DNA from: Eledone cirrhosa | Taxonomy: Eukaryota | DNA length: 64,000 nucleotides | Assembly (NCBI GenBank): GCA_964016885.1 | Contig: OZ024746.1 | Location: forward strand, 46,190,001 to 46,254,000 | Reading direction: 5' to 3' | In this document: positions 19,111 to 53,570 of the stretch, piece by piece | Position numbering within the stretch: the stretch's first letter is position 1 | How the letters are laid out: the number at the start of each line of letters is the position of its first letter | The notes under the pieces: model-generated | What the model saw: only the letters and a program-made list of their open reading frames with translations | Database searches by the model: none | What the model was told of the DNA's origin: nothing | Translations under genes and position numbers: made by a program

Positions 19111-21334
19111 AGAAATATATACATTAGCCTATCCAAAATGATTGTCGGAAACTTCCTTTATTTTGGATAAAAAATACATATATTAACGTTAACAGACATT
19201 TAATGTATAAGATATAATGGTTAGTGTTATGTGAATCTTACTTAAATATAAATTGAATATGTCAACAATCACTGAAGGACAATTTAGCGATGTAAGAAAC
19301 TCTCTCAGTTCCTTCTAAATATTTTAAACTCTTTACAAGATCTTTGGAGTTTGGTTAAACACAATGTTTTAGTAAGAAAAGAAAATGTTAATAAGGTAGG
19401 AAAAAGAAATCCTAACAATTGTCTAAATACAAGCTATTTAGGAAAAGAATATTTGTACAAGAAGTGAAATCAATATTGGTATATTACCATCTATTTAGAT
19501 CAGTTAAAGATTTATCCGATTAATGATTGCTTTAAGCTACTTCTAGAAATTGCGATGCACTGAATTTAGGAACATAAATATTGAATTTCTAGCTTCTAAC
19601 TTGGACATATACTATGTTGAATTATAGATTCATATCTATACACACATGTAAAATATTCACACAGTGTGTTATATATTGGAGCTTACAGTGGAAAGTCAAA
19701 CATACAATAATACATGAAATTTTACATCATTCACCTTTAACTGAAATTGGATATTAAAGGCTGTAAAATATGGTTTAGTTAAAGAACAGCCTACCAACAG
19801 ATAAAGAATAGATGTTTGACTAATATGGACACAAATAATGAGTTAGATGGAGTTCAAAAGTCAAAGAATAGCATACATTCAATCTGCATGAGAGTTTAAT
19901 TATACTATCAATAATAATTGGTTTGAGACTATTGGAATTTCCAATTTGATGTTACAGCTTGCAATAAGTGAATTAGTTTAGAGATAGTACACATACACTA
20001 GCTCACCCACAAACAGTTATCTAGAAACACCTACATGGACTATTACACCCACACACATGTATATATATGTTAAAAAATGGAATGATTAATAAAAATAATT
20101 TTCATAACATCCTTTAAGCTCCTTTCATTAATTAATAGTTTAATCTGAACATTTTATGTTACTGTAAATTAATATAAATGATCATGAGATAGTAATATTC
20201 ATGACGATCAGTATTGATGATGACAATGGCTATGATGGTAATGATGATGGTGGAGATGGTGAACGTAGTAATGATGCCAATTCTGATAATATTATGTTGA
20301 CAACAATGACAATGAAAGATTCCTATAAAGGCAACCATATCACGAAAGGAAATATAAATATATCTAAAAAAAAGTTAATTGCATCAAAAGTAAAAATAAT
20401 TTAACATAAAAGTATGAATGGATGTGCATGTGTCTTCATGTGTGTGATTAACTTTCATAAAAAAAACATTATTCTTAAAGAAAAATCCCACTTGTTAATT
20501 TTCAATACAAACGCCGACATTTTATTTTGAATGCTAAATTTAGGCTGATAAGTCTTTGGAAATCTGCCAAAATAAGTTTGCTTTAACATGAGTCATAGCT
20601 TTATAAATAGATTTCTACATTTAAGCATACTCGATAAAGATTATAGTTTATACCCTAGGTAGATGGCACTTCAAACACATGTATTTCTAAAAAGAAAAAA
20701 GAAAAAAAAAGGAGAACAGAAAATAATATTGATTTCTACAACAGTTACAAGACCAGACATTATAGTTGATAAAATCGCCTCCACTACTTGAATGATACTT
20801 TATTTTGCTGAACTAAAATGAAGGGAAGCATGGTTGAACTCAGCAGGATTTGTACTCAGAATCTAAAGGGATGTAACTAAATACTTCCAGGCATTATCTT
20901 TGTCTGTCTACTAATTCTGCAATCAAATAATATAATACACTTCCATGCTTCCCGATATTCCCCTTCCATACGCATGTGTGTGTGTCTGTGTGTATATCAT
21001 GGCACATACACTGTTCACTTTCCTGACATTTGTACATTATTCTATGTACTATACATGCACACTTGATGAGTTGTAACATACCTAAGCACTGTATACAATA
21101 ATTTTATTTACTATTCTGATATTCTAAACAAAACTACATTCATGCATGTAAACATGCATGCACACATACACATAAGCACACATGTACACATGAATGAACA
21201 GAGACACGTGTGGTCATGTTGTTAAGAAGTTTGCACCAAAAACAGATAGTTTCATATTCAATCACTTAGTTGGGCAAGTGTCTTCAAATATAGTTGGGAC
21301 AAATGAAACTTTGTGAGTGAAATTTAGGAGAGAG

Positions 21335-22087
21335 AAACTCAGACTAGAGAGGAACGAAGCTTGCATGCTCCGCTGGATGTGTAATAGTAATATACGTGAA
21401 TGGCAAAGCATAAATGAACTAAAGAAAAAATTAGAAATAAGAGGGATCAGATGTTGTTTACTCGAGAGAAGGCTACGTTGGTATGGACACGTGATGCGCA
21501 TGAAAGTCGATAGCTGTATAACAAAGTGCAGGGCAATAAAGATAGACGGTAGCCACGGAATAGGCAGACCTAGAAAAACCTGGGACGAGCTGATAAACTC
21601 CGACCTCACACACTTACACCTCTCCAAGACAATGTCACTGGACCGAGACCTTTGGTGGTACTCAGTAATAGAGAAGACCCGCCTTACCTAAATACATAGT
21701 AAAACCTACTACAGTCAGTAGGCATCCCTAACAAAATACACCCCCGTCCCACCACCCCCACCCCATCCACACCGCCCCCTTCTATGTAAAGTTATGTTGG
21801 TGCCACACCATCCAGGCTGAAACAAATGAGATCGTGTAGGTGTCACGACAAAAAAAACACACAGTCCACGCTGTAATGTGGCCATGTCGGCAACACGGTA
21901 AAAACCTCCCAGACCCACATTGTAAATGTGGTTGGTGTTAGGAAGGGCATCCAACTGTAGTAAACCTGCCAGACAGTCCTATGCGAGCAAGACAATCACT
22001 CTTGCCTCAAGTGGGAAAACCCCCGTCCAAACCCATGCAAGCGTGGAACACGGACGTTTAAACATTGATGATGATGATGATGATGAT
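21335..22087 (+). mobile_element. 5'-truncated RTE-clade LINE (ORF C-terminus, 3' UTR, (GAT)n tail)
   Basis: RLERNEACMLRWMC...RRLRWYGHVMRM...GRPRKTWDELINSDL (to 21691); 3' UTR ends ggacgtttaaacattgatgatgatg. Confidence 0.85.
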
Positions 22088-23645: not shown

Positions 23646-24300
23646 GAAACAAAGCTTGCATGCTCTGATGAATGTGTAATAGTAATATATGTTAACAGCA
23701 AAGCATAAACGAATTGAGAGAGAGACTGAGCACAAGAGGAATCAGATGCTGTGTGCAGGAGAGGGGGTTGCATTGGTATGGACATGTGATGCGTATGAAG
23801 GATGACAGCTGCATAAAAAGGTGCAGAGCACTAGAAGTCGAAGGAAGCCGTGGAGTGAGAAGACCCAAGAAGACCTGGGATGACGTGATAAAAGACGACC
23901 TTACCCAATTACACCTCTCTAGGGCGATGACACACGACATGATTTCTGTCATCACGCAGTAATACAGAAGACCTGACTTCCCACGAGTACAAGCCGAAGC
24001 TGAAGCATATAGACAATATGCCCCCACCCCTCCCACTGCAAAATGGTCATAGAAGTGCCACGGCAAAAAAGCACCCAGCCCACACTAAAGTGGTCGTGTA
24101 GGTGCCACGGAAAAAAAAAGCATGCAGCAATGACTGTAAATGAGGTTGGTATTAGGAAGGGCATCCAGCGGTAGAGATCAAGCCACAATCAGTTCCTGTA
24201 TGAGCAAGACAAGGTCAGCCGACTGGACACTGCTCACAACAGGACAACCCGTCTAACCCATGCTAGCGTGGAAGAATGGACGTAAAACGCTGATGATGAT
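23640..24300 (+). mobile_element. 5'-truncated RTE-clade LINE, same family as 21335-22087
   Basis: GLHWYGHVMRMKDDSCIKRC...RPKKTWDDVIKDDL; same 3' tail; starts in (TA)n. Confidence 0.85.
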
Positions 24301-24316
24301 ATTGGTGATATCATAC

Positions 24317-24357
<41 letters not shown>

Positions 24358-24373
24358 CATGTGTATATATATA

Positions 24374-24407
<34 letters not shown>

Positions 24408-24689
24408 TAAATCATGTCTTTAGAATCATCAGATATTAAAATATATACTATTTCTTCTTCTAATTAGCATAATTAACCATATACAAAATCAATCCTAGCA
24501 AGCTATAAGAATAAATTCTCTTATGGGGAAATCTCAGACAAATAACTGAACGTAGCCTCTTCGCGGCGGCCCCGTTCTAGTATTTATCCAACATTTCGAC
24601 AGCATGTAGAAACTGACGAAACATACCATCAACCATACACAATTAGTTGTAAAATTAAACTTAGAAGAAATGTGCACATACCGTAATTA

Positions 24690-24767
24690 TATCTCTACCA
24701 TGGTTTCTTCCTTATTTTGGACATCCAAATAATAGGAATGTCCTGAGCTAGGATTCATCAGGAGACA
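24690..24767 (-). ncRNA. Type I hammerhead ribozyme motif (minimal palindromic stem III, long stem II)
   Basis: UGUCUC-CUGAUGA-AUCCU...GGACAU..AUGUCC...AGGAA-GAAA-CCAUGG-UA-GAGAUA. Stem I 6 bp, intact CUGANGA/GAAA core, GUA triplet, predicted cleavage 3' of 24696. Confidence 0.7.
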
Positions 24768-25410
24768 AACTCAAAATCAGACATCTAGTTTTTCAATCCG
24801 ATCCCGCCAAAATTAGATTCAAAAATGGCTAGAAATCGCTATGTAGCTGTGTTCCAGCCAGAGAGAAAGAATGTGATTGGTTGCTTACGGCGGGTAGGCT
24901 TGCTGCTAGAAAGCGCAGTCAAATATCGCCAAATTTAATCTCAACCTATTGGGAGATTATTTGTTCGGTTATTTGTCTGAGATTTCCCCATGAGAGAATT
25001 TATTCTTATAGCTTGCTAGGATTGATTTTGTATATGGTTAATTATGCTAATTAGAAGAAGAAATAGTATATATTTTAATATCTGATGATTCTAAAGACAT
25101 GATTTATGATATAATGCTCTGATTTTTTGATTTTAATTTATTAATTCTTCATAGAGCTTAAAAGTGAACAGTTGCAACATATATATATCTTTATGTATAT
25201 GATAACCTTTATATTTAATAATCTCCCAATAGGTTGAGATTAAATTTGGCCATATTTGGCTGCGCTTTCTAGCAGCAAGCCTACCTGCCGTAAGCAATCA
25301 ATCACATTCTTTCTCTCTGGCTGGAACACAGCTACATAGCGATTTTTAGCCATTTTTTAATCTAATTTTGGCGGGATCGGATTGAAAAACTAGATGTCTG
25401 ATTTTGAGTT

Positions 25411-25488
25411 TGTCTCCTGATGAATCCTAGCTCAGGACATTCCTATTATTTGGATGTCCAAAATAAGGAAGAAACCATGGCAGAGATA
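25411..25488 (+). ncRNA. Second copy of the hammerhead motif, with a U16.1-to-C substitution
   Basis: tgtctc-ctgatga-atcct...aggaa-gaaa-ccatgg-Ca-gagata; C at 25481 replaces the invariant U. Confidence 0.6.
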
Positions 25489-25876
25489 TAATTACGCTAT
25501 GTGCGCATTTCTTCTAAGTTTAATTTTACAACTAATTGTGTATGGTTGATGGTATATTTGGTCAGTTTCTACATGCTGTCGAAATGTTGGATAAATACTA
25601 GAACGGGGCCGCCGCGAGGAGGCTACGTTCGGTTATTTATCTGAGATTTCCCCATAAGAGAATTTATTCTTATAGCTTGCTAGGTTTGATTTTGTATATG
25701 GTTAATTATGCTAATTAGGAGAAGAAATAGTATATATTTTAATATCTGATGATTCTAAAGACATGATTTATGATATAATGCTCTGATTTTTTGATTTTAA
25801 TTTATTAATTATTCATAGAGCTTAAAAGTGAACAGTTGCAACATATATATATCTTTAACTTTATGTATATGATAAC

Positions 25877-25880
<4 letters not shown>

Positions 25881-25943
<63 letters not shown>

Positions 25944-25994
25944 CATACATATGTGTATATATACATATATTTATACACGTATGTATGTATATAT
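25881..25994. repeat. (TA)n/(TACA)n microsatellite
   Basis: Seen directly. Confidence 0.95.
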
Positions 25995-26359
25995 GGAGGC
26001 ACATGACTTAGTGGTATGTATGTATGTATATATGGAGGCATTGGCCTTGCAATCGAAAGGTTGTGAGTTCAATTATCAGACCGGGTGATGTGTTGTTTCC
26101 TTGAGCAAAACACTTTATTTCACATTGCTCCAGTTTACTCAGCTGTAGAAATGAGATGATAGGGACTGGGGTCCATATCATTCCACTGCAAAGTGGTCGT
26201 GCAGGTACCACGGCAAAAAAGCACCCAGCACTCACTGTAAATGAGATTGGTGTTAGGAAGGGCATCCAGCTGTAGAAGTCAAGCCAGAATCAGTTCCCGT
26301 CCCACCCTTGCAAGCAGGGAAAAAGTGGACGTAAAATGAAATGATGATGATGATGATGA
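25995..26359 (+). mobile_element. tRNA-derived SINE (family B) with rearranged head and (GAT)n tail
   Basis: Highly similar to the reverse complement of 1601-1940. Confidence 0.88.
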
Positions 26360-27919
26360 CACATACATATACACAAAAATATACACATGATTTAGGTACA
26401 AGGCAAGCAATTTTGGTATAGGGTAAAGTCGATTAAATCAACCCCAATGTGTTAATGGTTCTTTAGGTATTTTATTTTAGTAACCCAATAAGGATGAAAG
26501 GCATGCTAACCTTAGCGAGATTTGAACTCAGAATATAAGGGGGGTGTAACTATATACTGCAAGCATATTGTCTGACACTCTCCTGATGCTGCCAATCAGC
26601 TGCACTTTGATATCATAATAATCATCATTAGTTGTTGTTGTTCACCTACAGCTTATCTCACAATGAGCAGTCGTTGATCAAATGCACTTCAGCCTTTTTC
26701 ACATGCCCAATATACCAAAGACCATATTATCCAATGTATTTTTTTAACAAAAATTCTAGAGTGTGACTTATTTTTAGAAGGTCACATGAACACTTTGAAG
26801 CTTCCATATTGGCTCATTAATTGTAGTTGGCAGACAAAATAGATGTGAAAAATAAAAGAATGATGTAGCAGATGGAAGAAAGAGTAAATAAAAAATATGC
26901 GTGGAGAGTAATATACAGTTGCATTTCACATCACAGGAAGGTTATCAATTACTAATTAGCTTGATATGTTATTAATGATATTGATTACTATTGATATGAT
27001 ATTGATTACTATTGATAAGATATTAATTCTATTTATAGAAATATTTTAAAAGAATTCAGTGCATATCAATTCCATGTGTATATTTTTAATGCAAGTGTAT
27101 AGTTTGGCAAAACTGATGTACACTGTCAAACTTTATATATAACTATTGTAGATATTTAAAGAATCTAGAAAGCATGGGTTAAATTTCTTTTATTTAAAGC
27201 AACTTATCTAAATATTGATTCTTTTCTTTATTTTTCTTTCTCAATAAATGTCAACTTTAGAAGAAATAATTAATTTACAAAGGCAGTATGTTTTCTTTGG
27301 TTTGTTTTTTGTTTTTGTTCTTTTTTTTTGTTTTCTACTATCAAATGAAATATAAAATTTTAATGAGATAACTGTCATTAATTGTGACAACAGCAAGAAA
27401 AAGTTCCAGACTTATTGCTGGTAATTTCTGAACCAACAAAGCAATCAAGCCATCTTTGATTCATGGACGGTGGTAGCAGTGAGGTTAAACTGCTGAACTA
27501 ATGAACATAGTCATTAGTTTGAAACATACAATTCAATTATGACTCTAAGCAACACATATAACTGTGATTGTATCAATTAATTTCACTAAAATAAAAACCA
27601 AATGACACAATAGTAAGGTTTGCAATGAAAACGTTATCTAGATGCAGAAGTGTAATAGCTTAAACACGAACTACTATAACTATTCCAGCATGATAAAACT
27701 GTATATAAAATAATTGGCAAAATAAAATCTGAAACCGTTTATCTTTTATCTCTAGTGGTGTATGAGAATGGATGAATGCTACAACCTTTAGTTTTTCCAT
27801 ACATTTGTATACAAGGCGATGTATAGAATAATTAATACTAATGTTATTTGAATTACACTGCCAATGGCCTTTGATTCATGAGAAGAAAGAGTGAAAAGAT
27901 TTATTCAATCTTTCCTTAC

Positions 27920-27982
27920 CTTTCTCTGCCATCAGGTCATAGATTATGTCTGGGCAATTTCTTGACAAGTACTATGTAACAT
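27920..27982 (-). other. Candidate 63-nt exon (probably UTR or non-coding; could contain a start ATG GCA GAG AAA G)
   Basis: Acceptor gctaattttgtattttcccatAG|, donor AAG|GTAAGG; stops in all three frames. Confidence 0.35.
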
Positions 27983-29210
27983 CTATGGGAAAATACAAAA
28001 TTAGCTTCCTGTTGCCTTCCTCTTGATTTATGTGACAAGACACCAGCTTTTTAGCTAAGTATATATAAGTTTATAGCATTTGACTAGGTACTCAGAATGT
28101 AAAGAGCCAGTGGGAAGAAATTCTCAAGAGAGTTTACAGCAAAAGGTCTTCAGAGAAGAAACCCACCTCAAGCAAGTGTTTTGGCCCTTAACTTTTGAAA
28201 CATTTCTAGCATCTGACAAGGTACTCAGAATGTAAAGACAAATGCAATAAAAAAGTGTGTTCAATGTATTAACAACTCTGCCAATCCTTGACCCAGACTG
28301 GTACATTATTGACTGACCCTGGGAGGATGAAAGGCAAAGTCGACCTTGTGACTCAGTGCATAAAGAGCCTGAACAAATACCACAAGGCATTACGTCCAAA
28401 GCTCCGATAATCCTGCAAATTCACCACCACCTATCCAATGAATAGATTTCAAATAAAAGTACTAGAACTGAAATGCATATGAGTATGTAAATTATCATGA
28501 TAGCTGGTTGAATTGGTTCTACTCAATATTACACACAAGCTTGCTTAACCACTAGAACATTTACAAGGTTTGGAGATAAGTGAATTATATCTCATGCAAA
28601 GAATGGTTATGAAGCTGCTGATGCAGTTCATTATCTTCATTAATATGAAGTGCTCAATCAGCAGAATAAATCTTATCCTGTGAGAAAGGAAAGAAGTTTA
28701 ATGTTGCAGCCATAATTATTTTGGCTGAAACATTAAATATATCTTTTTCCTGGCAGCCTAAAATGTAGTTCACATCATTTACACCTTCCATTGCAATGTT
28801 TTTAATATAATACACTGTATTTAAATTGATCACTGACGAATTTGGAGGGATTATGTCATTATTAAGATGGTATTTTCAACATAACATATAGTTCTTATAT
28901 AGAATTATGTTGGAAAATTTTAATTTATGTTAGAACACTTTGAATTGGATGGTTTTGTTCTATAGTACCAGAGGTACTTTAGGGCATTAATGGAAGGAAG
29001 GAAAGGCTATACTCAACAATAATATCCTTGTATGAAAAGAAGAGATTAGAGCCATTCAGCTGACTCTAAAACTGATATCTATTTGTTTACCACCTACCAA
29101 GGGAGCTATGACACATGGTCACTCAACCTGCTAGAAATAGAAACCAAATCATCCAAAAATCAGAGAATATATTTTTAGATATAGACTAAAAAGAGATGGA
29201 ATAGTTACTA

Positions 29211-29648
29211 GACCTGAAAAATGCGCAAGCTCAAAAGAGCCACAGAATGTTTTAATAAACCTTCAAAAGTGTGGGACTAGAGTTGTTGCTCAAAAATATT
29301 GTAATCATTATCTATCGTACACTCTGTGGCATCCTTTTATAAAAAAAGAGACTCATAACGAACTCAAGACGAGACAGTAATTATTTAAGCTAATGTTCAA
29401 TATCTCATATTAGATGTTAAGTAATGATTAATACGAAATGCACTTAAACCGAATTGTATATTATAAATTCACTTAAATAATTATCGTGTCGTCTTGAGTT
29501 CGTTATGAGTCTCTTGTTTATAAAAGGATGCCACAGAGTGTATGATAGATAATGATTGCAATATTTTTGAGCAACAACTCTAGCCCACACTTTTTAAGTT
29601 TTATTATAACATTCTGTGGCTCTTTTGAGCTTGCACATTTTTCAGGTC
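29211..29648. mobile_element. Foldback MITE with ~178-bp TIRs and TA TSD
   Basis: TA-GACCTGAAAAATG...CATTTTTCAGGTC-TA; arms ~29211-29389 and ~29472-29648; ~82-bp spacer. Confidence 0.88.
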
Positions 29649-29865
29649 TAATTTAATATTTTTTTAAGGCAACACTTGTAATAACTCTAGTTAAACATGA
29701 TATATATTAATAATAAATTATTGTTGTAATGTAATTAGATTATATAATTGTTATTTTATAAATGATCTTATAAATATTATTGTAAGATGTATAAAAATAT
29801 TTTCAGACTTTTAATAGTTAATATAAATTTTAAAAAATCATATATAAATTAACAATATAACTTAC

Positions 29866-30060
29866 CAAAACGAGAAAAATATTTTGATGATAAACGACGA
29901 AATACTGGAGGAAGATTCGAAAGTGAAACGATAAATAAACATGCAAACAAAGTGGCGGATGCTTTTGAGCAACAATTACTCTCGTTGGTTGATTAGCCAA
30001 TAAGACGATACATTACAAAAGATGTTTGGGAGGAATCACCATGGCCAGCGATACCCCTTG
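29866..30060 (-). promoter_or_regulatory. Candidate promoter and first exon of a minus-strand transcript
   Basis: Locally CpG-retaining, apparently unique sequence; consensus donor TTG|GTAAGT at 29866/29865; CCAAT at 29997-30001. Confidence 0.35.
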
Positions 30061-31402
30061 AATTTTTTATTTACAAGCTACGCATGTATGTCAGACACGC
30101 AGACTTAAAATATTCTGTTGTTAGTCACTGCGTGTCTAACAGATAACTAAAATCCTATTAACCATACTAAAGTAAATAGCAAGAACCTTTCAGTATTTCA
30201 TGGCTTGTATTGTATGTAAATTTCATGATTCCCAAACTGTTTTCAGACTACTGGCTCCTTGTCTTTACATCTTTTCTCCTATACCTGATACTCTAGAGAT
30301 TTTCTAAAAAGAACAAGTCACACCACTCAATAGAATCTTAAACAAAGAAAGATTTCAACAAAATAGCATTAAACCCAATGTACCCATTAAGTCAACACAA
30401 CAACACCAGAAAACATTATTTTAAATAGTGGTCAGATTGTAGTTTGATCAAAAATAACAAATATACTTTGAGTAATGAATATGGCAACATCACATCGATT
30501 CTAACATAGAACACACAAAATAATTAAGTAGTGACAGTGATAGTCTAACTCATGCTAGCGTGGAAGATGGACGTTAAACGAAGATGATGATGATGATACT
30601 TCTTAGCTTAAATCATTTGTTCAGTTTGTCGGCATGTTTATGTCTGTATGTTTGTAAGCCATTTCTGGTAATTATTGAGTAGCCTTAGAGAATCTGCTGC
30701 TACTGGTACCATGTAACCTAGTACAATCTGCTTCATAGTTAAGTGGTCAACAGATAAACCGGCTCCTTAACCAGACTCTGGTGAGGAGGTTAAGTGGAAC
30801 CCCATCAGCACAAAAAACAAGAGCTGTTAAAAGAGTCAACAACCATCCACTGCAACTATGGGTTAAATAGCTTCACCAACCTGCAATTGGCTAAGCGTGG
30901 CGTGTACAGCTGACATTACCAAAACTAAAAAGAAAGTGGTGGAGGCCAACCTGGATCAGAGTACTGCCAACAGGAGTGAGAAGGCATTGGATTTGATTGG
31001 ATAGAGAATCAATGTGAACCAGGTGTATGATGGCCTTGAAAATGATGAGGTGTTGCTGATTTTAGATAAATATCAAGCATAACAACTTTCACTATAGGAA
31101 ATCACTTTAAACTAACTGTATGGCTCCTGATAACACTAGCATGCATACAGAAGTAGTAGTGCTATTAGAGGTGTCAACATAGCAGAGCAATTCAATGAAG
31201 AGGTTTCAACACACTAAAGTAGAAACTTGCTAAACAGAAACCTTCTTATCTTTCATATTGTTTTTATCTATGCCTATAACAAAGACAAATAATCCTAGAT
31301 AAATAATCAAATAATCATTTGATTAATTAAAGTTGGCAATGATATTCTCATGTAAAATAAATGACAGCTACACAACAAAAAACTTAGTCAATATGATGCT
31401 AC

Positions 31403-32620
31403 CATCATCATTTAACGTTTGCTTTCCCTGCTAGTAAAGGTTTAACAGTAAGTCAGTACTAAAGCGGATCTACTGGACTCACAGATAGGCTATGAGTTTG
31501 CATCTCATTTATAGATAGTTGCATACTCTACTAAGTGCATTTATCATGTCACCAGTACTAGGGAGGTTGTCATGTCTTTTACATAACTGAAGGGTCCTCT
31601 CAACCCTCTTTGGAAAGCTTTCTATGGTTGGATACGCTAACTAGCACCAACCCCTTTATAGTGTCATGGTTTTCACAATGAGTTGCGTTCCTATTACTAA
31701 CCACCTTACAGGGTGTACTGAGTGCAATTTCGTGGCACCAACTCTGCTCTGTGGGTGGGGAAAGGGAAAGGGAGATAAGTATGAGGTTATGGATGTATGA
31801 TAAGTGAGATATGATTTGACAGGGTGAGGAGTGGAGGGAAGGGGTGACCTCTGATAGCATAAGGGATGTAACGAAGATGAGAATACCTAAGCAGTGATAA
31901 TGGGAGGGAGCATTCACCAGAGTGTTGGAGCATTGGTGGGGGTACTGTCATGAAGAGAATAGCTAAGAAGCAGTGGTGGAGGGGGTATGGGAGAAGCTAC
32001 TCGGGTATGATAGAGCAGATACCTAAGGACTTTATGTGGGGGGATAGCTCAATATTGATAGTGGAAGGGTATAAGCAGGGTGCATAGGATTGTGAGAGTA
32101 GTTACTGGAGTACAATAGAGAAGGTATATAAAGACTTTTGAGGGGTGGAAGTGATATTGGGGGAGGGGCATGCAGTGATTGTAAGAATAGCTACTAGGGA
32201 TAGTGAATGGTGGGAGTCAAATTACATTTATGTTGGTGGCTAAGTTTTCACCAGCACACATAGTGCCAAGCCCTTGCGGCTTTGTTATTTCTATTGTAAA
32301 GGTTTAGGTTCTGATGATCAGTCTTCACTACTTCATCCAGAATCTTCCTAAGTCTGCCTCCTTCATGCATCCCAGTCACTGGGATTTCTCTGAATTTCTT
32401 TATACAGCTGCCATCTTCCATATGCATCACATGTCCATACCAGTGCAATCTTCTCTCTAGAATGCTACATCCAATTTCTCTTATGCCAAGTTTTTCTCTC
32501 AATTCGTTTATGCTACATCATTCATGCACACTAACATTACACATCCATTAGAGCATACTAGCTTTATCTATTTCTAGGCTTTGCAGGTATTCTGCAGTCA
32601 AGGCCCATGTCTCAATGCCA
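31403..32620 (-). mobile_element. 5'-truncated RTE-clade LINE with long 3' UTR
   Basis: ERRLHWYGHVMHMEDGSCIKK...GRLRKILDEVVKTD (32248-32502); tail catcatcatttaacg at ~31403. Confidence 0.75.
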
Positions 32621-33400
32621 TTGCTATCAGTCAGATAATAGCTGTTATTGTGTATATAGAATATTCTATGTATATTTTATCCAAATTCTGGCAGTAAATT
32701 CTTCCAGTTCTATCTTTTCCTCTTACTTAAGATACATTCAAAAAATCATAACTATTTTTTAGCAAATTAAATATTAATATATTTTTTGAGTGATACTTAT
32801 TCCTTTTTGATTTCATTTCTCAGAATTGCTTCACAAAAATAAATTACAATGTTATTATTCATGTGGTGTATTTATGTATTAACACTTATATCATATTTGC
32901 TTTTAAATTTATTTTGTTTGTCATATATCATATTCAAAACCAGACATAAATATTTTTCTAGACGAACCAGAAATACAGTAATGACATTTTAGAAAAAAAT
33001 AAAACATGGGTGAAAATGGTCAGAGTAATAAACTAAGAAATATAAACAATGTATAAGAAAGATGTAAAGTGCAAGAAAAAGTATATATTACATTATACAC
33101 ACACATACATATATGTTTAGATATGGAAGGTGATTAAATCTTTATTGCTGATCTCACTGTATTTTTTATATCTCGATAGTTAATTTATTTGGCAATCAAT
33201 GTTTATCATTGATTGACCAACAGTTAAAAATACAGATATAAATATATATATATATAGTCTATCAAAGTTCTTTAATCACTCATCAGCAACATCATCAGTG
33301 GTACTATTATGTTTTCTCCCATTATATTGTAAATCAAGGGAAAGCAAATAAAGAAACATTTTTAAATAAATTTAAAAAAATTCACTGTACTTACTACATG

Positions 33401-33484
33401 TGCCTTTACCGCGGTTTCAAATCGCAAAATGAATAGATAATCCAGGCGGATTTCCATTGAGAAAGAGATTATCGTCAGAAGGCA
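33401..33484 (-). ncRNA. Type I hammerhead ribozyme motif at the 3' end (pLTR) of a Penelope-like element
   Basis: UGCCUU-CUGACGA-UAAUC...GAUUU-GAAA-CCGCGG-UA-AAGGCA. Perfect 6-bp stem I, palindromic stem III, GUA triplet, predicted cleavage 3' of 33407; ~280 bp downstream of the GIY-YIG stop on the same strand. Confidence 0.68.
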
Positions 33485-33764
33485 TTTCTCTCTCAGAGAA
33501 TATAAAATTCCCGAGTTAAAAATTTCAAACTGGCGCCATTCCAAACTGACTCAAAATGAGAGTAAATTAATTAATTTATTTCTTCTTGTCTCTGTCTCCG
33601 CGCATGTATTTGCGTGTGTGTATAATGTTTGGTGTGTGTGTTCGCGTTAGAGTGTATGTGGTTTTGTTTTTCTATTCTATCTTTGTTCACTAGTGTGTGT
33701 TTATATGTGTTTGTTGTTATTGTATTTGTGTATATATATATTTATTTATTTATTTATATTTCCC

Positions 33765-34064
33765 TCAAGTCAGTATTGTTGTTTGGGTATGGTTGTTGTT
33801 GTTATTCCATTCACTCTTTTTATTCAACTTTGGTCGTCTTAGTTCTATCTCAGTTGCTTCCCTGATTTGCCTACCTGTTGAGTCATTTCTATGCTTAGAT
33901 ATTATTTTAATTTCTATGTTGCCTATATTGCCATCATGTGTTTGTCTGCCATATAGTACTGAACCATGTTTTTGTCCTTTTAGTTCACCCCAGTGTTGGT
34001 CTGTTCTTTCTTCTATGCTTCAAGCTGTCTCACCTACGTATGTTGTCATGTTTCTGCAAGTACC
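33765..34064 (-). pseudogene. GIY-YIG endonuclease C-terminus of a Penelope-like retroelement
   Basis: GTCRNMTTYVGETA*SIEERTDQHWGEL...SVLY...H...RQIREATEIELRRPKLNKKSEW...*, showing the YVGET...ER..xH and EA..I...LN motifs; one internal TGA at 34020-34022. Confidence 0.75.
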
Positions 34065-34115
34065 CTATATATATGTGTGTATATATATATATATACACAC
34101 ATATATATAGGGTAC
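34060..34115. repeat. Perfect 56-bp palindrome
   Basis: gtaccc-tatatatat-gtgtgt-(at)7-acacac-atatatata-gggtac is its own reverse complement. Confidence 0.92.
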
Positions 34116-42115: not shown

Positions 42116-44453
42116 CTACATGATTAAAGCACCGCACAATAGCAGTTTAAAAATATACCATGCTACACAGTTTTTTTGGCCAATGAACCCTCCGACCGGA
42201 ACGGGTCGTAGTCTTATATCTTGGTGATGGGGGGGGGGGGGGGGCAAAGACACAGGTGTGTGTGCAAAAGAGAAAGATGGGGGTGTATGTGGCTCAGGTG
42301 TGTGAGCATCTGTGTGGGCCCGTTTAAGTCTATCAACCGCAATGGTCTCTTTGGATTCCTTAATGTCTACAGTGAAATGTTTATCAGAACGAGCCAACAC
42401 ACAGTAGGGTCCAGAGTATGGTTGTTTGAGAGGTGGTCTCACAGCATCGTTTCTTATGAACACATGGGTCCACGAGGCAATATCCCTCGAGACTGCAGAT
42501 TTTACAGTTTGTTTCCTCGTATCCATCGGCGGCAGGTCCTGAAAATAAGAATGCAAACGGGATACGTAGGAAAGCGGATCTTGTGCAGCAAGATCGATAG
42601 GGGCAAGCATTTTCCCAGGCAACGCTAGAGGAGCACCATACAATAATTCGGCCGGGGAGAACCCAAGGTCCTCCTTTATTGATGACCGAATCCCCAACAA
42701 CGCAATAGGGAGGTACTCGCTCCAACACGTAGAGTCAGGAGAAGTTCGTAGAGCGGCTTTTAGTTGTCGGTGGAAAGGCTCCACCATTCCATTAGAAGCA
42801 GGATGATATGCAGTCGTTCGGATGCATTTAGCGCCGATGATTTTCGTTAATTCATGGAATAGATTCGATTCAAACTGTCTTCCATGGTCCGTTGTAATCG
42901 TGGTTGGCACTCCAAAGCGGGCAATCCATCCTGATACTAGGGCAGGCGCTATCGTTCCAGCAGTGATGTCTATCAAGGGGATGGCTTCAGGCCATCGCGA
43001 AAAACGATCAATAACAGTCAATAGATAAGTATGACCACCACTGACTGGTCAAGGTCCCACGATGTCCACATGATTGTGCCGGAAACAGGCGTCCGGTGTA
43101 CTGAACGTACCGAGCGGAGCCTTAACGTGTTTATGCATTTTCGATTTCTGGCAAGCAATGCAGAAACGGCACCAAGCAGTAATATCACGCCTCATATTTG
43201 GCCAGAAGAATCTGGCTGTTATAAGCTTTACTGTGGCAGAAGATCCTGGGTGGGAAATGCTGTGTAAAGCAAGAAACACAATACGACGATGGTTTAGCGG
43301 GACGAATGGTCTCGGTGAATCCACGGAACAACGCAGAGAATCTGTCCGTCTGCCGTGAACAATGGCAGGTATTTCAAATTACTCGTCACAAATTCGGCTG
43401 ATATAATATCCAACGATTCCAGTGCAGGTTGGTCTGCTGCCAAGTGATTTAAATCGATGTTGTGGGATGACGCAATTGAACTGATCGGCAATCGAGACAC
43501 GGCGTCAGCCGCTGTGTTCCATGAGCCTGGAATGTGTTGGATGTCATTTGTGAATTGCGAGATAAAGTAGAGATGCCTTGTTTCTCTGCGCGAGTACTTG
43601 TCGGACTTTGCCCTTAAAGCGAAGGTCAAAGGTTTATGGTCAGTATAGATTGTAAAACACCTTCCTTCGAGCATATGTGAAAAATTTTTCACGGAAAGGT
43701 AGATGGATAACAGCTCCCGGCCAAAGGTGCTGTAGCGAGTTTCTGCAGGCTTCAACTTCCTGGAGAAAAATTCCAATGGTTGTTGGTGATCGTCACTACT
43801 CTGTTATAAGACTGCACCTACTGCAGTATCCGACGCATCAACACAAAGCGAAAGCTTGGCATTGGACATTGGGTGGGCCAGCAAAGATACACTAGCCAAT
43901 GCTGATTTGGCTTTTGAAAATCCTTGAGCTGAGTCTGAGTCAAAGAGATGTCCTTATTTTTCTTGCGGCAATTTTTCAGAATCTCAGTAAGATATAAGAG
44001 TAGATTAGCACAATGCGGAACAAAACGTCTATAGAAATTTATCAGTCCTAGGAATTGTCGCAACTGACGAAGTGAGGTCGGCGGAGGCAAATCCTCTATA
44101 GCCTGAACTCGTTGAGGGAGGGGTCGAATACCCTCGGAGTCAATGACATGACCTAAAAAATTCAGTGATTCCGCACCGAAAACACATTTTGTGGTATTTA
44201 TTTGAACACTGTAATCCTTGAGTCGACAAAACAAAAGATTCAAATGACATATGTGTTCTTCTCTGGAGGAACTAGCAATAAGTAAATCATCAATATAAGT
44301 GTAGACGATGTCTAAACCACGAGTGATCTCATCCATGAACCGTTGAAAGGTGCTAGCAGCATTCCTAAGTCCGAAAGGCATGGTAAGAAATTCGAATGAT
44401 CCAAATGGAGTCGTAATGGCCGTTTTCGGAATATCTTCTTTCTTGACAGGAAT
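42116..44453 (-). pseudogene. pol: Gypsy pol (RT-RNase H-integrase), frameshifted
   Basis: RT: TAITTPFG, MPFGLRNA, YIDD. RNase H: DAS, FFSRKL, TDHKPL, ADAVSR. Integrase: HSISH...[28 protein letters not shown]. The RT-RH-IN order is Gypsy-type; split over four frames. Confidence 0.95.
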
Positions 44454-44522
44454 CAGTCGACGCTAGATGGCGTGATCTTCTACAATGCCTTTTGAGAAAA
44501 ACTTAGGTAGAGACAATCACCC

Positions 44523-52758: not shown

Positions 52759-52949
52759 TGTCTGTTAAATATTTATAGAATATATTATTTAAATTTCCAA
52801 GCATAAATGACTTCTGAAATGTAGATTTTATTGAGCTACATGAGTTACTAAAACATTTATCATACCTACCATGATTACCATTAAAAAATCTCTACATATT
52901 TACTCAACCTGTTGGAAATGGCTTCCAAATCTCCTTCAAACCACAATGT

Positions 52950-53570
52950 ATCATCATTGTTTTTATGTCTGATTTTTCACGCTAGCATGGGTTGGATGGG
53001 TCCTTTGCAGCACAGCATCTGCGCTCCTTCTTCATCTCCTCTGAGTTTCAGTGATTTGAGACCTGCTCTCACCACATCTGCCCAGGTCTTCTTTGGCCTT
53101 TGTCTACTGCAGCTTTCTTCCACTGGGATTTCTTGGCTCTTTTCCACCCAGTGGAGACCATCCATGTCCATACCAATGCAGTCTTCTCTATTGCACACTA
53201 CTTCTGATGATTCCTCTTATACTCAGTTGTTTTTTTCACAGTTCATCGAAGCTCTCTCACTCTCTGACATGAACACTGGACATCCATTGAAGCATGCTTG
53301 ATTTATTTCTCTCCAGCCTTCACATACCCTCTGCAGTCACTGCCCAGGTTTCAAAGCCTTGCAGCATAGCATTTTGCTCATAGGCAACGTACAGTCAGCC
53401 TTTCATTCAGAGTGAGAAATATTTTGTTATCAACAGAAGTAATAGTTTCCTAAACTTCTTCTATCCTGCCCTTGTTCTAGCTACTCTGCTTTCAGAGTAC
53501 CCTCTTCCACTGCTAATTGAATCACCTAGATAGCAGAAGTTATCAAGCACTTCTATGGATCCTACTTGGA
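52950..53570 (-). mobile_element. Decayed RTE-clade LINE 3' portion
   Basis: EVLDNFCYLGD (~53520-53550) and QRPKKTWADVVRAGL; tail remnant at ~52950. Confidence 0.75.

Follow-up and report, generated by a model that had tools for sequence, protein, structure and literature searches.

Two Penelope-type insertions in an Eledone cirrhosa contig share type I hammerhead motifs with a branched domain II and a predicted flank-to-loop pseudoknot

Two separate insertions into TA microsatellites lie in the window, by which we mean the whole 64,000-nucleotide stretch of Eledone cirrhosa DNA analysed: the tail of a decayed Penelope-like element (PLE) and an inverted-plus-tandem array of a non-coding unit (Table 1). 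They contain three type I hammerhead motifs belonging to two sequence families, family 1 in the unit and family 2 in the PLE fragment. Both repeats carry the same unusual addition to the hammerhead, and together they are likely an uncatalogued variant of the known partnership between PLEs and non-coding passengers.

Table 1. Positions of repeats, hammerhead motifs and associated features in the window.
Feature	Position	Strand	Details
(TA)n microsatellite	24326..24405		left end of unit insertion
Inverted unit copy	24401..24961	-	545/561 identical to direct copy
Family 1 hammerhead, intact core	24690..24773	-	cut predicted between 24696 and 24695
Direct unit copy, 5′-truncated	24963..25213	+	matches 25627-25883, 6-nt deletion
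Complete non-coding unit, 670 nt	25214..25883	+	~33% GC; head-to-tail junction 25213/25214
Family 1 hammerhead, direct copy	25405..25488	+	motif body 25411-25488
Second long hairpin in unit	25581..25650	+	z -4.5; 0/200 shuffles as stable
Optional 3′ extension, ~106 nt	25778..25883	+	in direct copies, not in inverted copy
(TA)n microsatellite	25880..25994		right end of unit insertion
PLE, decayed, 5′-truncated	33257..34064	-	flanked by two TA-rich tracts
Family 2 hammerhead, intact core	33401..33490	-	cut predicted between 33407 and 33406
GIY-YIG endonuclease, C-terminal half	33804..34064	-	one in-frame stop, one Zn-ligand histidine lost

The unit had been annotated at 664 nt, a figure that is 6 nt too small because it came from a spacing running through the upstream partial copy, which lacks those 6 nt. 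Neither strand holds a coding remnant or a stop-free stretch of more than 50 codons. The 5′ end of the inverted copy matches 25217, only 3 nt from the tandem junction, and its 3′ end corresponds to 25777, directly against (TA)n; position 25777 also runs into (TA)n in ten contigs of set X1. The truncated direct copy begins within the 3′ arm of the long hairpin, and the 3′ extension resembles the ‘tail’ of PLEs, although it is longer than the usual 30–40 nt. From 24401 to 25883 the array combines a partial tandem, an inverted 5′ copy, a one-sided tail and a (TA)n target, features published for PLE insertions (PMC8557442), and its unit is a non-coding one that bears a type I hammerhead, as in non-LTR retrozymes. 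Two consecutive units with complete hammerheads, by which active copies were recognized in 2026 (bioRxiv 10.64898/2026.07.22.740005), are absent at this locus. With one motif per strand and the direct-copy motif mutated, the locus is a dead end for further spread.

The PLE fragment retains about 85 endonuclease codons, and neither RT nor linker is present; the first-pass annotation’s autonomous coding element is not found at this locus. The endonuclease matched a GIY-YIG profile at E 1.4e-18, and a full HMMER search returned 67 homologs at E 0.001 or better; a word-indexed protein search and Pfam gave no match with the 90-aa fragment. The homologs are proteins with an RT, a CX4CxxC linker and a GIY-YIG domain, the last recognized by Pfam in 3 of 17, once above cut-off. 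Octopus is among the named homologs of the endonuclease’s relatives, at about 42% identity. A Neptune label was dropped for a tentative ‘Nematis-like’, based on by-eye comparison with Fig. S2 and on a linker present in the homologs only. None of 68 candidate stretches in viral contigs proved to be a relative, and 4 of 123 metagenomic candidates did, two being too short to include a 3′ end. Two relatives with DNA behind the ORF, L001 and L002, carry short-stem hammerhead-like cores, so the long hammerhead form described below is not general in the fragment’s clade.

As first annotated, motifs with different stems follow one design, and the parts of both families could be located letter by letter on the minus strand. 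Stem I of family 1 pairs 24767–24762 with 24695–24690 (6 bp including one G-U) and is followed by CUGAUGA (24761–24755), an A·A mismatch and a 4-bp stem II. In family 2, the 6 bp of stem I join 33484–33479 to 33406–33401, and CUGACGA (33478–33472) leads into a U·U mismatch and again a 4-bp stem II. The stem II domain, estimated earlier at about 50 nt, spans 47 nt in family 1 (loop strand 24749–24744, distal hairpin 24743–24719) and 53 nt in family 2 (33464–33459 and 33458–33432). GAAA-CCAUGG-UA and GAAA-CCGCGG-UA close the respective cores, and the 5′ flanks are 24773–24768 and 33490–33485. The type I order CUGANGA/GAAA/UH is intact from 24761 and from 33478, with three helices around the core in the predicted folds; cleavage is predicted between 24696 and 24695 in family 1 and between 33407 and 33406 in family 2. 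In the direct copy of the unit a C at 25481 replaces the conserved U16.1 and so breaks the core. This C is private to that copy, T being present in 108 of 109 reads of set X5 and at all contig depth in X1, X2 and X4. The family 2 motif sits in the element’s 3′ terminal region, some 320 nt 3′ of where the endonuclease ends. A 6-bp helix I, a 4-bp helix II and a short palindromic helix III correspond to the canonical metazoan type I form; the min-HHR form (no helix III insert, helix II 7–8 bp, helix I 4–5 bp) is not seen in the window motifs. Nor do they have the canonical terminal loop 2 touching the helix I loop, an internal loop and a hairpin standing in its place. Helix III alone is computed to be unstable (+1.9 to +2.9 kcal/mol) and reaches 8 bp in a homodimer.

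The argument that the same structure in different sequence is not chance held up: the pattern proposed with it matched twice, against none in 100 dinucleotide shuffles. A general type I descriptor gave 0.007 matches per shuffle (300 shuffles), none of the CCNNGG class. As controls we examined core-only matches, 113 in viral contigs and 119, of about 500 estimated, in prokaryote genomes. A stem I of at least 5 bp together with a stem II of at least 4 bp occurred in 0 of these 232 versus both intact window motifs, and among the control matches examined the descriptor scans yielded no complete motif. The window motifs had no Rfam match at gathering score and none to a hammerhead family up to E 10 with covariance models, so existing Rfam hammerhead models do not already cover them; an Rfam check of 16 loci from the descriptor scans likewise returned nothing. 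As wholes, the isolated motifs fold no more stably than shuffles (z -1.1 to -1.4). It is the core and paired stems, not stability, that support them.

New here is the branched domain II with a predicted flank-to-loop pseudoknot shared by both families. On folding, each domain II comprises 4 bp, a 6×6 internal loop and then a hairpin, and the 5′ strand of the loop is complementary to the 6 nt directly before stem I, with different letters in the two families. This complementarity, missed in the first-pass annotation, is the most distinctive feature of the motifs. In exact register, family 1 has five Watson-Crick pairs and one G-U and family 2 six Watson-Crick pairs, from which we predict a 6-bp pseudoknot in both. 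The pairing was noticed post hoc; background chances are 0.0007 and 0.002 in exact register and 0.038 and 0.071 in loose registers, and the most permissive criterion gives a joint chance of about 0.05 (0.23 × 0.22). Comparable pairing occurs in 4 of the 232 core-only controls. Support for the pseudoknot comes from only two independent sequence families. Other copies of the unit have A at 25430 (all X1, X2 and X4 depth; 122 of 129 X5 reads), which turns the G-U of family 1 into A-U. A loose-end variant before 25460, in three X1 contigs, appears to alter the pairing’s last loop base, and no compensating change is visible among the 24 of 345 loose-end rows listed. When flanks are included, nested folding, which is unable to score pseudoknots, assigns the ribozyme stems 20–50% probability in family 1 and 5–9% in family 2. 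We found no published description of a branched, pseudoknotted PLE architecture, in a search whose scope stopped short of Lunse et al. 2017, Arkhipova et al. 2017 and supplementary files to PMC4209133, PMC3088659 and the 2026 preprint.

The unit belongs to a multi-copy, diverged family, matched by 1220, 1194 and 37 contigs in sets X1, X2 and X4 and by 2941 X5 reads. Its head-to-tail junction recurs in two further studies, in one X4 contig, which has 104 letters on its shorter side and carries another organism label, and in 12 X5 reads; 96 X5 reads run over unit ends. Left-end loose letters in X2 and X4 are the unit’s own 3′ end among the rows listed, and 46 unexplained letters precede 25210 in one X1 contig. 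X1 and X2 derive from a single sample, possibly the source of the window, which leaves X4 and X5 as the independent support. The head-to-tail repetition of a fixed unit that is expected of a retrozyme is represented by the partial tandem in the window and the X4 and X5 joints.

A hammerhead subclass used both by coding PLEs and by non-coding units mobilized in trans had been proposed from the first reading. The shared design in PLE fragment and unit bears out one half of this proposal; this PLE family as the mobilizer is not supported. Outside the ribozyme core, unit and fragment have no significant similarity (score 29 versus a shuffled mean of 29). The shared design most likely reflects descent from one PLE lineage. 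A further proposal, that the palindromes make dimer cleavage family-specific, also divides. Co-folding favours like-with-like helix III dimers over monomers by 11.6 and 8.5 kcal/mol but does not predict cross-family dimers (0.1), and the homodimers fold as textbook double hammerheads. That cleavage needs dimers is unsupported, because invertebrate motifs usually have a helix III of 2 bp plus a tetraloop, and monomers from coral and mussel cleave (PMC7229834). Published work already covers the passenger idea (PMC7229834; bioRxiv 10.64898/2026.07.22.740005), the palindrome in helix III, cleavage as dimers and the mismatch beneath stem II.

Overall, we moderately favour a reading in which both insertions carry a pseudoknot-predicted type I hammerhead and the 670-nt unit is a likely retrozyme served in trans by Penelope-type enzymes. 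A PLE protein studied in purified form nicked AT-rich DNA on both strands, extended both, and began at two sites inside the RNA (PMC11167929). Tandem units would be transcribed first; the pseudoknot would hold stems I and II side by side, replacing the usual loop 1–loop 2 contact, and the palindromic helix III would let neighbouring same-family copies pair and cut. A PLE protein might then reverse-transcribe unit-length or multimeric RNA, nick both (TA)n strands and start at two internal sites (25777 and 25883), an outcome of which would be a head-to-head array with a tail at one end.

Alternatively, the unit may be only the pLTR of an unseen autonomous PLE family, or its occasional internally deleted by-product, and no self-propagating passenger. 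Truncated PLEs show exactly this inverted-plus-partial-tandem layout (PMC8557442), X1 and X2 show no head-to-tail joint among the matches listed (24 of 345 loose-end rows), and most end-crossing reads are unclassified. Against this stand the same junction in two other studies, one under another organism label, the inverted copy starting at most 3 nt from it, the listed left-end letters that are the unit’s own tail, and a unit free of coding remnants; we regard the pLTR explanation as unlikely. The partner could also be the very PLE family seen at 33257–34064, as the first-pass annotation held in its strong form. Ribozyme design, (TA)n target and genome are shared, and a weak visual likeness lies some 60 nt before the 3′ ends. 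That likeness was rejected as insignificant (256 of 2000 shuffles were as good, with the unit end set at 25865), no other sequence is shared, the fragment has a stop and a lost histidine, and Neptune, Hydra and Naiad PLEs alike target (TA)n (PMC8557442), all of which makes this partner quite improbable.

Other doubts concern the ribozyme itself. The flank–loop pairing may be a competing early co-transcriptional fold in which the ribozyme stays inactive until refolded by a protein or a second copy; a 9-bp nested flank-to-loop helix indeed dominates the predicted ensemble of family 2, PLE hammerheads are weak in vitro (PMC4209133), and one of them requires PLE protein (PMC11167929). Yet the 6-bp pairing takes only bases left unpaired by stems I and II, at the position of the loop 1–loop 2 contact, such pseudoknots speed other hammerheads, including human C10 (PMC3088659), and they lie beyond what nested folding scores, so that we consider an off-state improbable but worth keeping in view. 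We give little credence to the suggestion that the motifs are a folded signal for PLE protein, or relics, with cleavage irrelevant to spread. Its grounds are that an anole PLE inserted in vitro without cleavage and no reads ended at the cut site (PMC11167929), and that eight of nine Xenopus retrozyme dimers stayed uncleaved in the 2026 preprint; set against it are perfect cores in two diverged families and the best 40 of 192 differences between copies, which spare the core except for the return to U at 25481.

If our preferred reading of a retrozyme with PLE partners is extended, a distinct subclass (type I core, branched domain II, flank-to-internal-loop pseudoknot) may run throughout a PLE lineage and its passengers in this animal group, invisible to Rfam and with families insulated from one another, a generalization that we offer tentatively and consider doubtful. 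Such a subclass would also escape any descriptor with an upper limit on the domain II spacer, and the long form would be present in some PLE families currently scored as hammerhead-free. Helix III palindrome and pseudoknot letters would be particular to each family, restricting pairing to like with like. Standard searches miss the long form, whether by Rfam or by the core descriptor of PMC8557442, which permits a 7–17-nt spacer, so invertebrate ribozyme counts may be low. Published PLE hammerheads are mostly minimal, slow and said to be without tertiary contacts, and among PLE-linked forms one that conserves a pseudoknot would make a good candidate for a fast hammerhead. The presence in one genome of two families whose palindromes differ opens dimer specificity to direct testing.

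Among known systems, non-LTR retrozymes (Cervera and de la Pena 2020, PMC7229834; Li, Clavereau and Pollet 2026, bioRxiv 10.64898/2026.07.22.740005) are the same kind of non-coding head-to-tail unit with one type I hammerhead and are likewise proposed to be mobilized by PLEs. The present unit falls inside the 51–972 bp range given in the 2026 survey, but is longer than the 170–400 nt of invertebrate non-LTR retrozymes and has a long, pseudoknot-predicted domain II. The PLE signature is explicit here, in the inverted copy, the tail and the (TA)n flanks, and the locus differs in having no two intact motifs in tandem. Hammerheads in the pLTRs of PLEs (Cervera and de la Pena 2014, PMC4209133; Craig et al. 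2021 table S2, PMC8557442) share the position 3′ of the endonuclease, the extra base between A9 and stem II and the small palindromic helix III with predicted dimers; in Hydra-clade motifs each side of a 4-bp stem II has an unpaired base, and helix III of Hydra-1_oBim is similar (PMC8557442). The window motifs are set apart from them by a domain II of 47–53 nt with a 6×6 internal loop and distal hairpin and by the 5′-flank complementarity, no comparable tertiary pairing being described in the consulted portions of those two papers. In table S2 a long domain II also occurs in two spike-moss PLE-X motifs, which are marked there as deviating. EN+ PLEs with a CX2-5CxxC linker (Nematis, Neptune; PMC8557442) differ from the window fragment, which is without linker and RT, and L001 and L002 are short-stemmed.

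Canonical metazoan type I motifs, including axolotl HHR_Amex2 (PMC7229834), have the same 6-bp helix I, 4-bp helix II and 2-bp helix III with tetraloop, and HHR_Amex2 has a U·U mismatch at the helix II base, as in family 2. The window motifs, by contrast, have an internal loop bearing an added hairpin in place of terminal loop 2, and an internal loop in helix I is not seen. A Watson-Crick pseudoknot joining the stem I and stem II sides is known in all three types from bacterial and phage hammerheads and human C10orf118 (Perreault et al. 2011, PMC3088659), a study that left highly repetitive type I motifs out of part of its analysis. The window motifs differ from that set in having an internal loop as the partner strand and a retroelement repeat as the host.

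The window carries two families of hammerhead motif, family 1 in a 670-nt non-coding unit and family 2 in a fragment of a Penelope-like element (PLE; 33257-34064). Each motif has a stem I of 6 bp and CUGAYGA, after which come a 1x1 mismatch, a stem II of 4 bp and a long domain II (47 nt in family 1, 53 nt in family 2); GAAA, a palindrome of 6 nt and UA follow. The two motifs to which the first-pass annotation ascribed this design are both present, together with one further, mutated copy, whose core is altered at 25481, a change confined to that copy (data set X5 has T in 108 of 109 reads). The motifs are real and well above chance: the annotated pattern has two matches in the window and none in 100 dinucleotide-shuffled sequences, matches to a general type I descriptor average 0.007 per shuffle (300 shuffles), and none of 232 core-only matches from viral contigs and prokaryote genomes, fetched as controls, has both stems. 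The motifs also lie outside existing Rfam hammerhead coverage, with no match even at E 10 for 161-base pieces. Stability of the whole motifs is unremarkable (z about -1.1 to -1.4). In three related viral contigs (L032, L080, L112) the core pattern occurs with a spacer of 52 nt but stem I is absent; these are probably not ribozymes.

Coordinates of features in the window
Feature	Position	Strand
Family 1 hammerhead	24767-24690	minus
Family 1 hammerhead, third, mutated copy	25411-25488	plus
Family 2 hammerhead	33484-33401	minus
Family 1 flank-loop pairing	25405-25410 with 25429-25434	
Family 2 flank-loop pairing	33490-33485 with 33464-33459	
Inverted copy of unit	24961-24401	
5'-truncated direct copy of unit	24963-25213	
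Complete unit, 670 nt	25214-25883	
GIY-YIG endonuclease, C-terminal half, one stop	34064-33804	minus
TA-rich fold-back	34059-34115	
Splice-site-like word, family 1	25496-25502	
Splice-site-like word, family 2	33395-33389	minus
Imperfect palindrome, 440 nt, 87%	29209-29650	
Second, weaker inverted repeat	29747-29856	
Broken frames, Ty3/Gypsy-like by eye	42116-44462	minus
Reverse transcriptase 3'-end fragments by eye	21317-21691, 23692-24084, 52885-53301	
Open frame, 247 codons	13576-14319	minus

The first-pass annotation missed a branched domain II and its complementarity to the flank. Domain II has the same fold in the two families: a basal stem, a 6x6 internal loop and a distal hairpin. The internal loop's 5' strand is complementary to the hexanucleotide immediately upstream of stem I, with different letters in each family. 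This pairing was noticed post hoc, with background probabilities in the two families of 0.0007 and 0.002 in the exact register, 0.038 and 0.071 in loose registers, and 0.23 and 0.22 anywhere in domain II; comparable pairing occurs in 4 of the 232 core-only controls. Position 25430 is A in other copies (122 of 129 X5 reads and all depth in contig sets X1, X2 and X4), which makes the family 1 pairing wholly Watson-Crick. Against the pairing, a variant found in three contigs appears altered at the last loop base. Separately, 12 X5 reads match through the end of CUGAUGA (25423), carry other letters and resume past stem I (25499/25500), possibly representing a subfamily whose domain II differs.

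By analogy with the hammerheads in PMC3088659, the flank-loop pairing would form a pseudoknot standing in for the loop 1-loop 2 contact. Also against it, nested folding with the flanks gives ribozyme stem probabilities of only 20-50% (family 1) and 5-9% (family 2), and these modeled values leave room for the pairing being part of a switch. Beyond the putative pseudoknot, helix III is computed to be unstable as a lone helix and may instead form an 8-bp helix between neighbouring copies. The predicted co-fold gain is 11.6 and 8.5 kcal/mol for like with like in the two families and 0.1 across families; the bare mixed 8-mer duplex still reaches -6.8, versus -11.2 and -14.1 for like pairs. Since retrozyme monomers of invertebrates cleave (PMC7229834), cleavage may not depend on the dimer.

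The region 24401-25883 is a single insertion flanked by two (TA)n tracts. The 3' ends of its inverted and direct copies face outward into (TA)n, and one of them carries an extra ~106 nt. The annotated unit length of 664 nt reflects spacing via a copy with a 6-nt deletion; the true length is 670 nt, and the longest open frame is at most 50 codons. Searches with 25202-25865 in four of the seven listed runs recovered 1220, 1194 and 37 contigs (X1, X2, X4) and 2941 X5 reads, mostly <95% alike, which makes this a large and diverged family. One X4 contig, under another organism label, repeats the head-to-tail junction, as do 12 X5 reads; the six linker letters of the X4 contig equal 25866-25871, giving a period of 670. 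No such joint occurs among the rows listed for X1 and X2. In two X2 contigs the loose letters ahead of 25204 are those of the unit's tail, and 10 X1 contigs show the second 3' end, with 25777 running into TA repeats. Because the loose-end and difference rows listed are a minority, an ORF-bearing parent may lie behind the unit.

The unit has no significant sequence similarity to the PLE fragment outside the ribozyme core. Rather than the autonomous copy initially proposed, the PLE locus holds a dead stump, running from a TA-rich fold-back (34064) to (TA)n (33257), with half an endonuclease; no second PLE endonuclease fragment lies within the window. The endonuclease (profile match E 1.4e-18) has 67 homologs in a full HMMER search, and 3 of 17 homologs match Pfam GIY-YIG. 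Two named relatives come from octopus. In the longer homologs the endonuclease is joined by a CX4CxxC linker and motifs of reverse transcriptase, and the spacing looks Nematis-like by eye against Fig. S2 of PMC8557442. The family 2 hammerhead lies ~320 nt beyond the endonuclease end. Short-stem hammerhead-like cores in two full-length or near full-length metagenome relatives (L001, L002) indicate that the long form is not clade-wide. In L002 (1-3441, near-complete), the terminal repeat is 124 nt and the ORF starts within it, just 3' of a minimal hammerhead. The fold-back at the 5' break of the window fragment is near-perfect, with the element's first bases mirrored beyond.

Introns are known in PLE ends. 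Each family has a word resembling a 5' splice site 6-8 nt downstream of stem I; the inverted copy has it intact at the corresponding place, as do nearly all reads, with G at 25497 in reads. Elsewhere, two inverted repeats without a hammerhead core look like a miniature DNA transposon. By eye, the broken frames resemble a Ty3/Gypsy retrotransposon's reverse transcriptase, RNase H and integrase, and three fragments resemble 3' ends of reverse transcriptases from RTE-type LINEs. The 247-codon frame has one homolog at 85% identity and is possibly a host gene exon.

A PLE protein would nick both strands at (TA)n and, starting at two internal sites, copy the RNA there; PMC11167929 shows such copying in vitro for an anole PLE. 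Earlier work, including PMC4209133, PMC8557442 and PMC7229834, covers hammerheads at PLE ends, dimer cleavage with a palindromic helix III, and a mismatch below stem II; PMC3088659 describes pseudoknotted type I hammerheads, and PMC7229834 and bioRxiv 10.64898/2026.07.22.740005, among others, describe retrozymes as non-autonomous PLE derivatives. The combination of features seen here was not found in the parts of the literature covered, which also included PMC10085705, PMC6765202 and PMC6155905. Two spike-moss PLE-X entries in table S2 of PMC8557442 likewise have long domain II motifs. One, PLE-X1_sMoe, has an inner hairpin and five loop bases complementary to the 5' flank, both by eye, the latter weak on its own. 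The structural variant is likely new, and the surrounding system is known.
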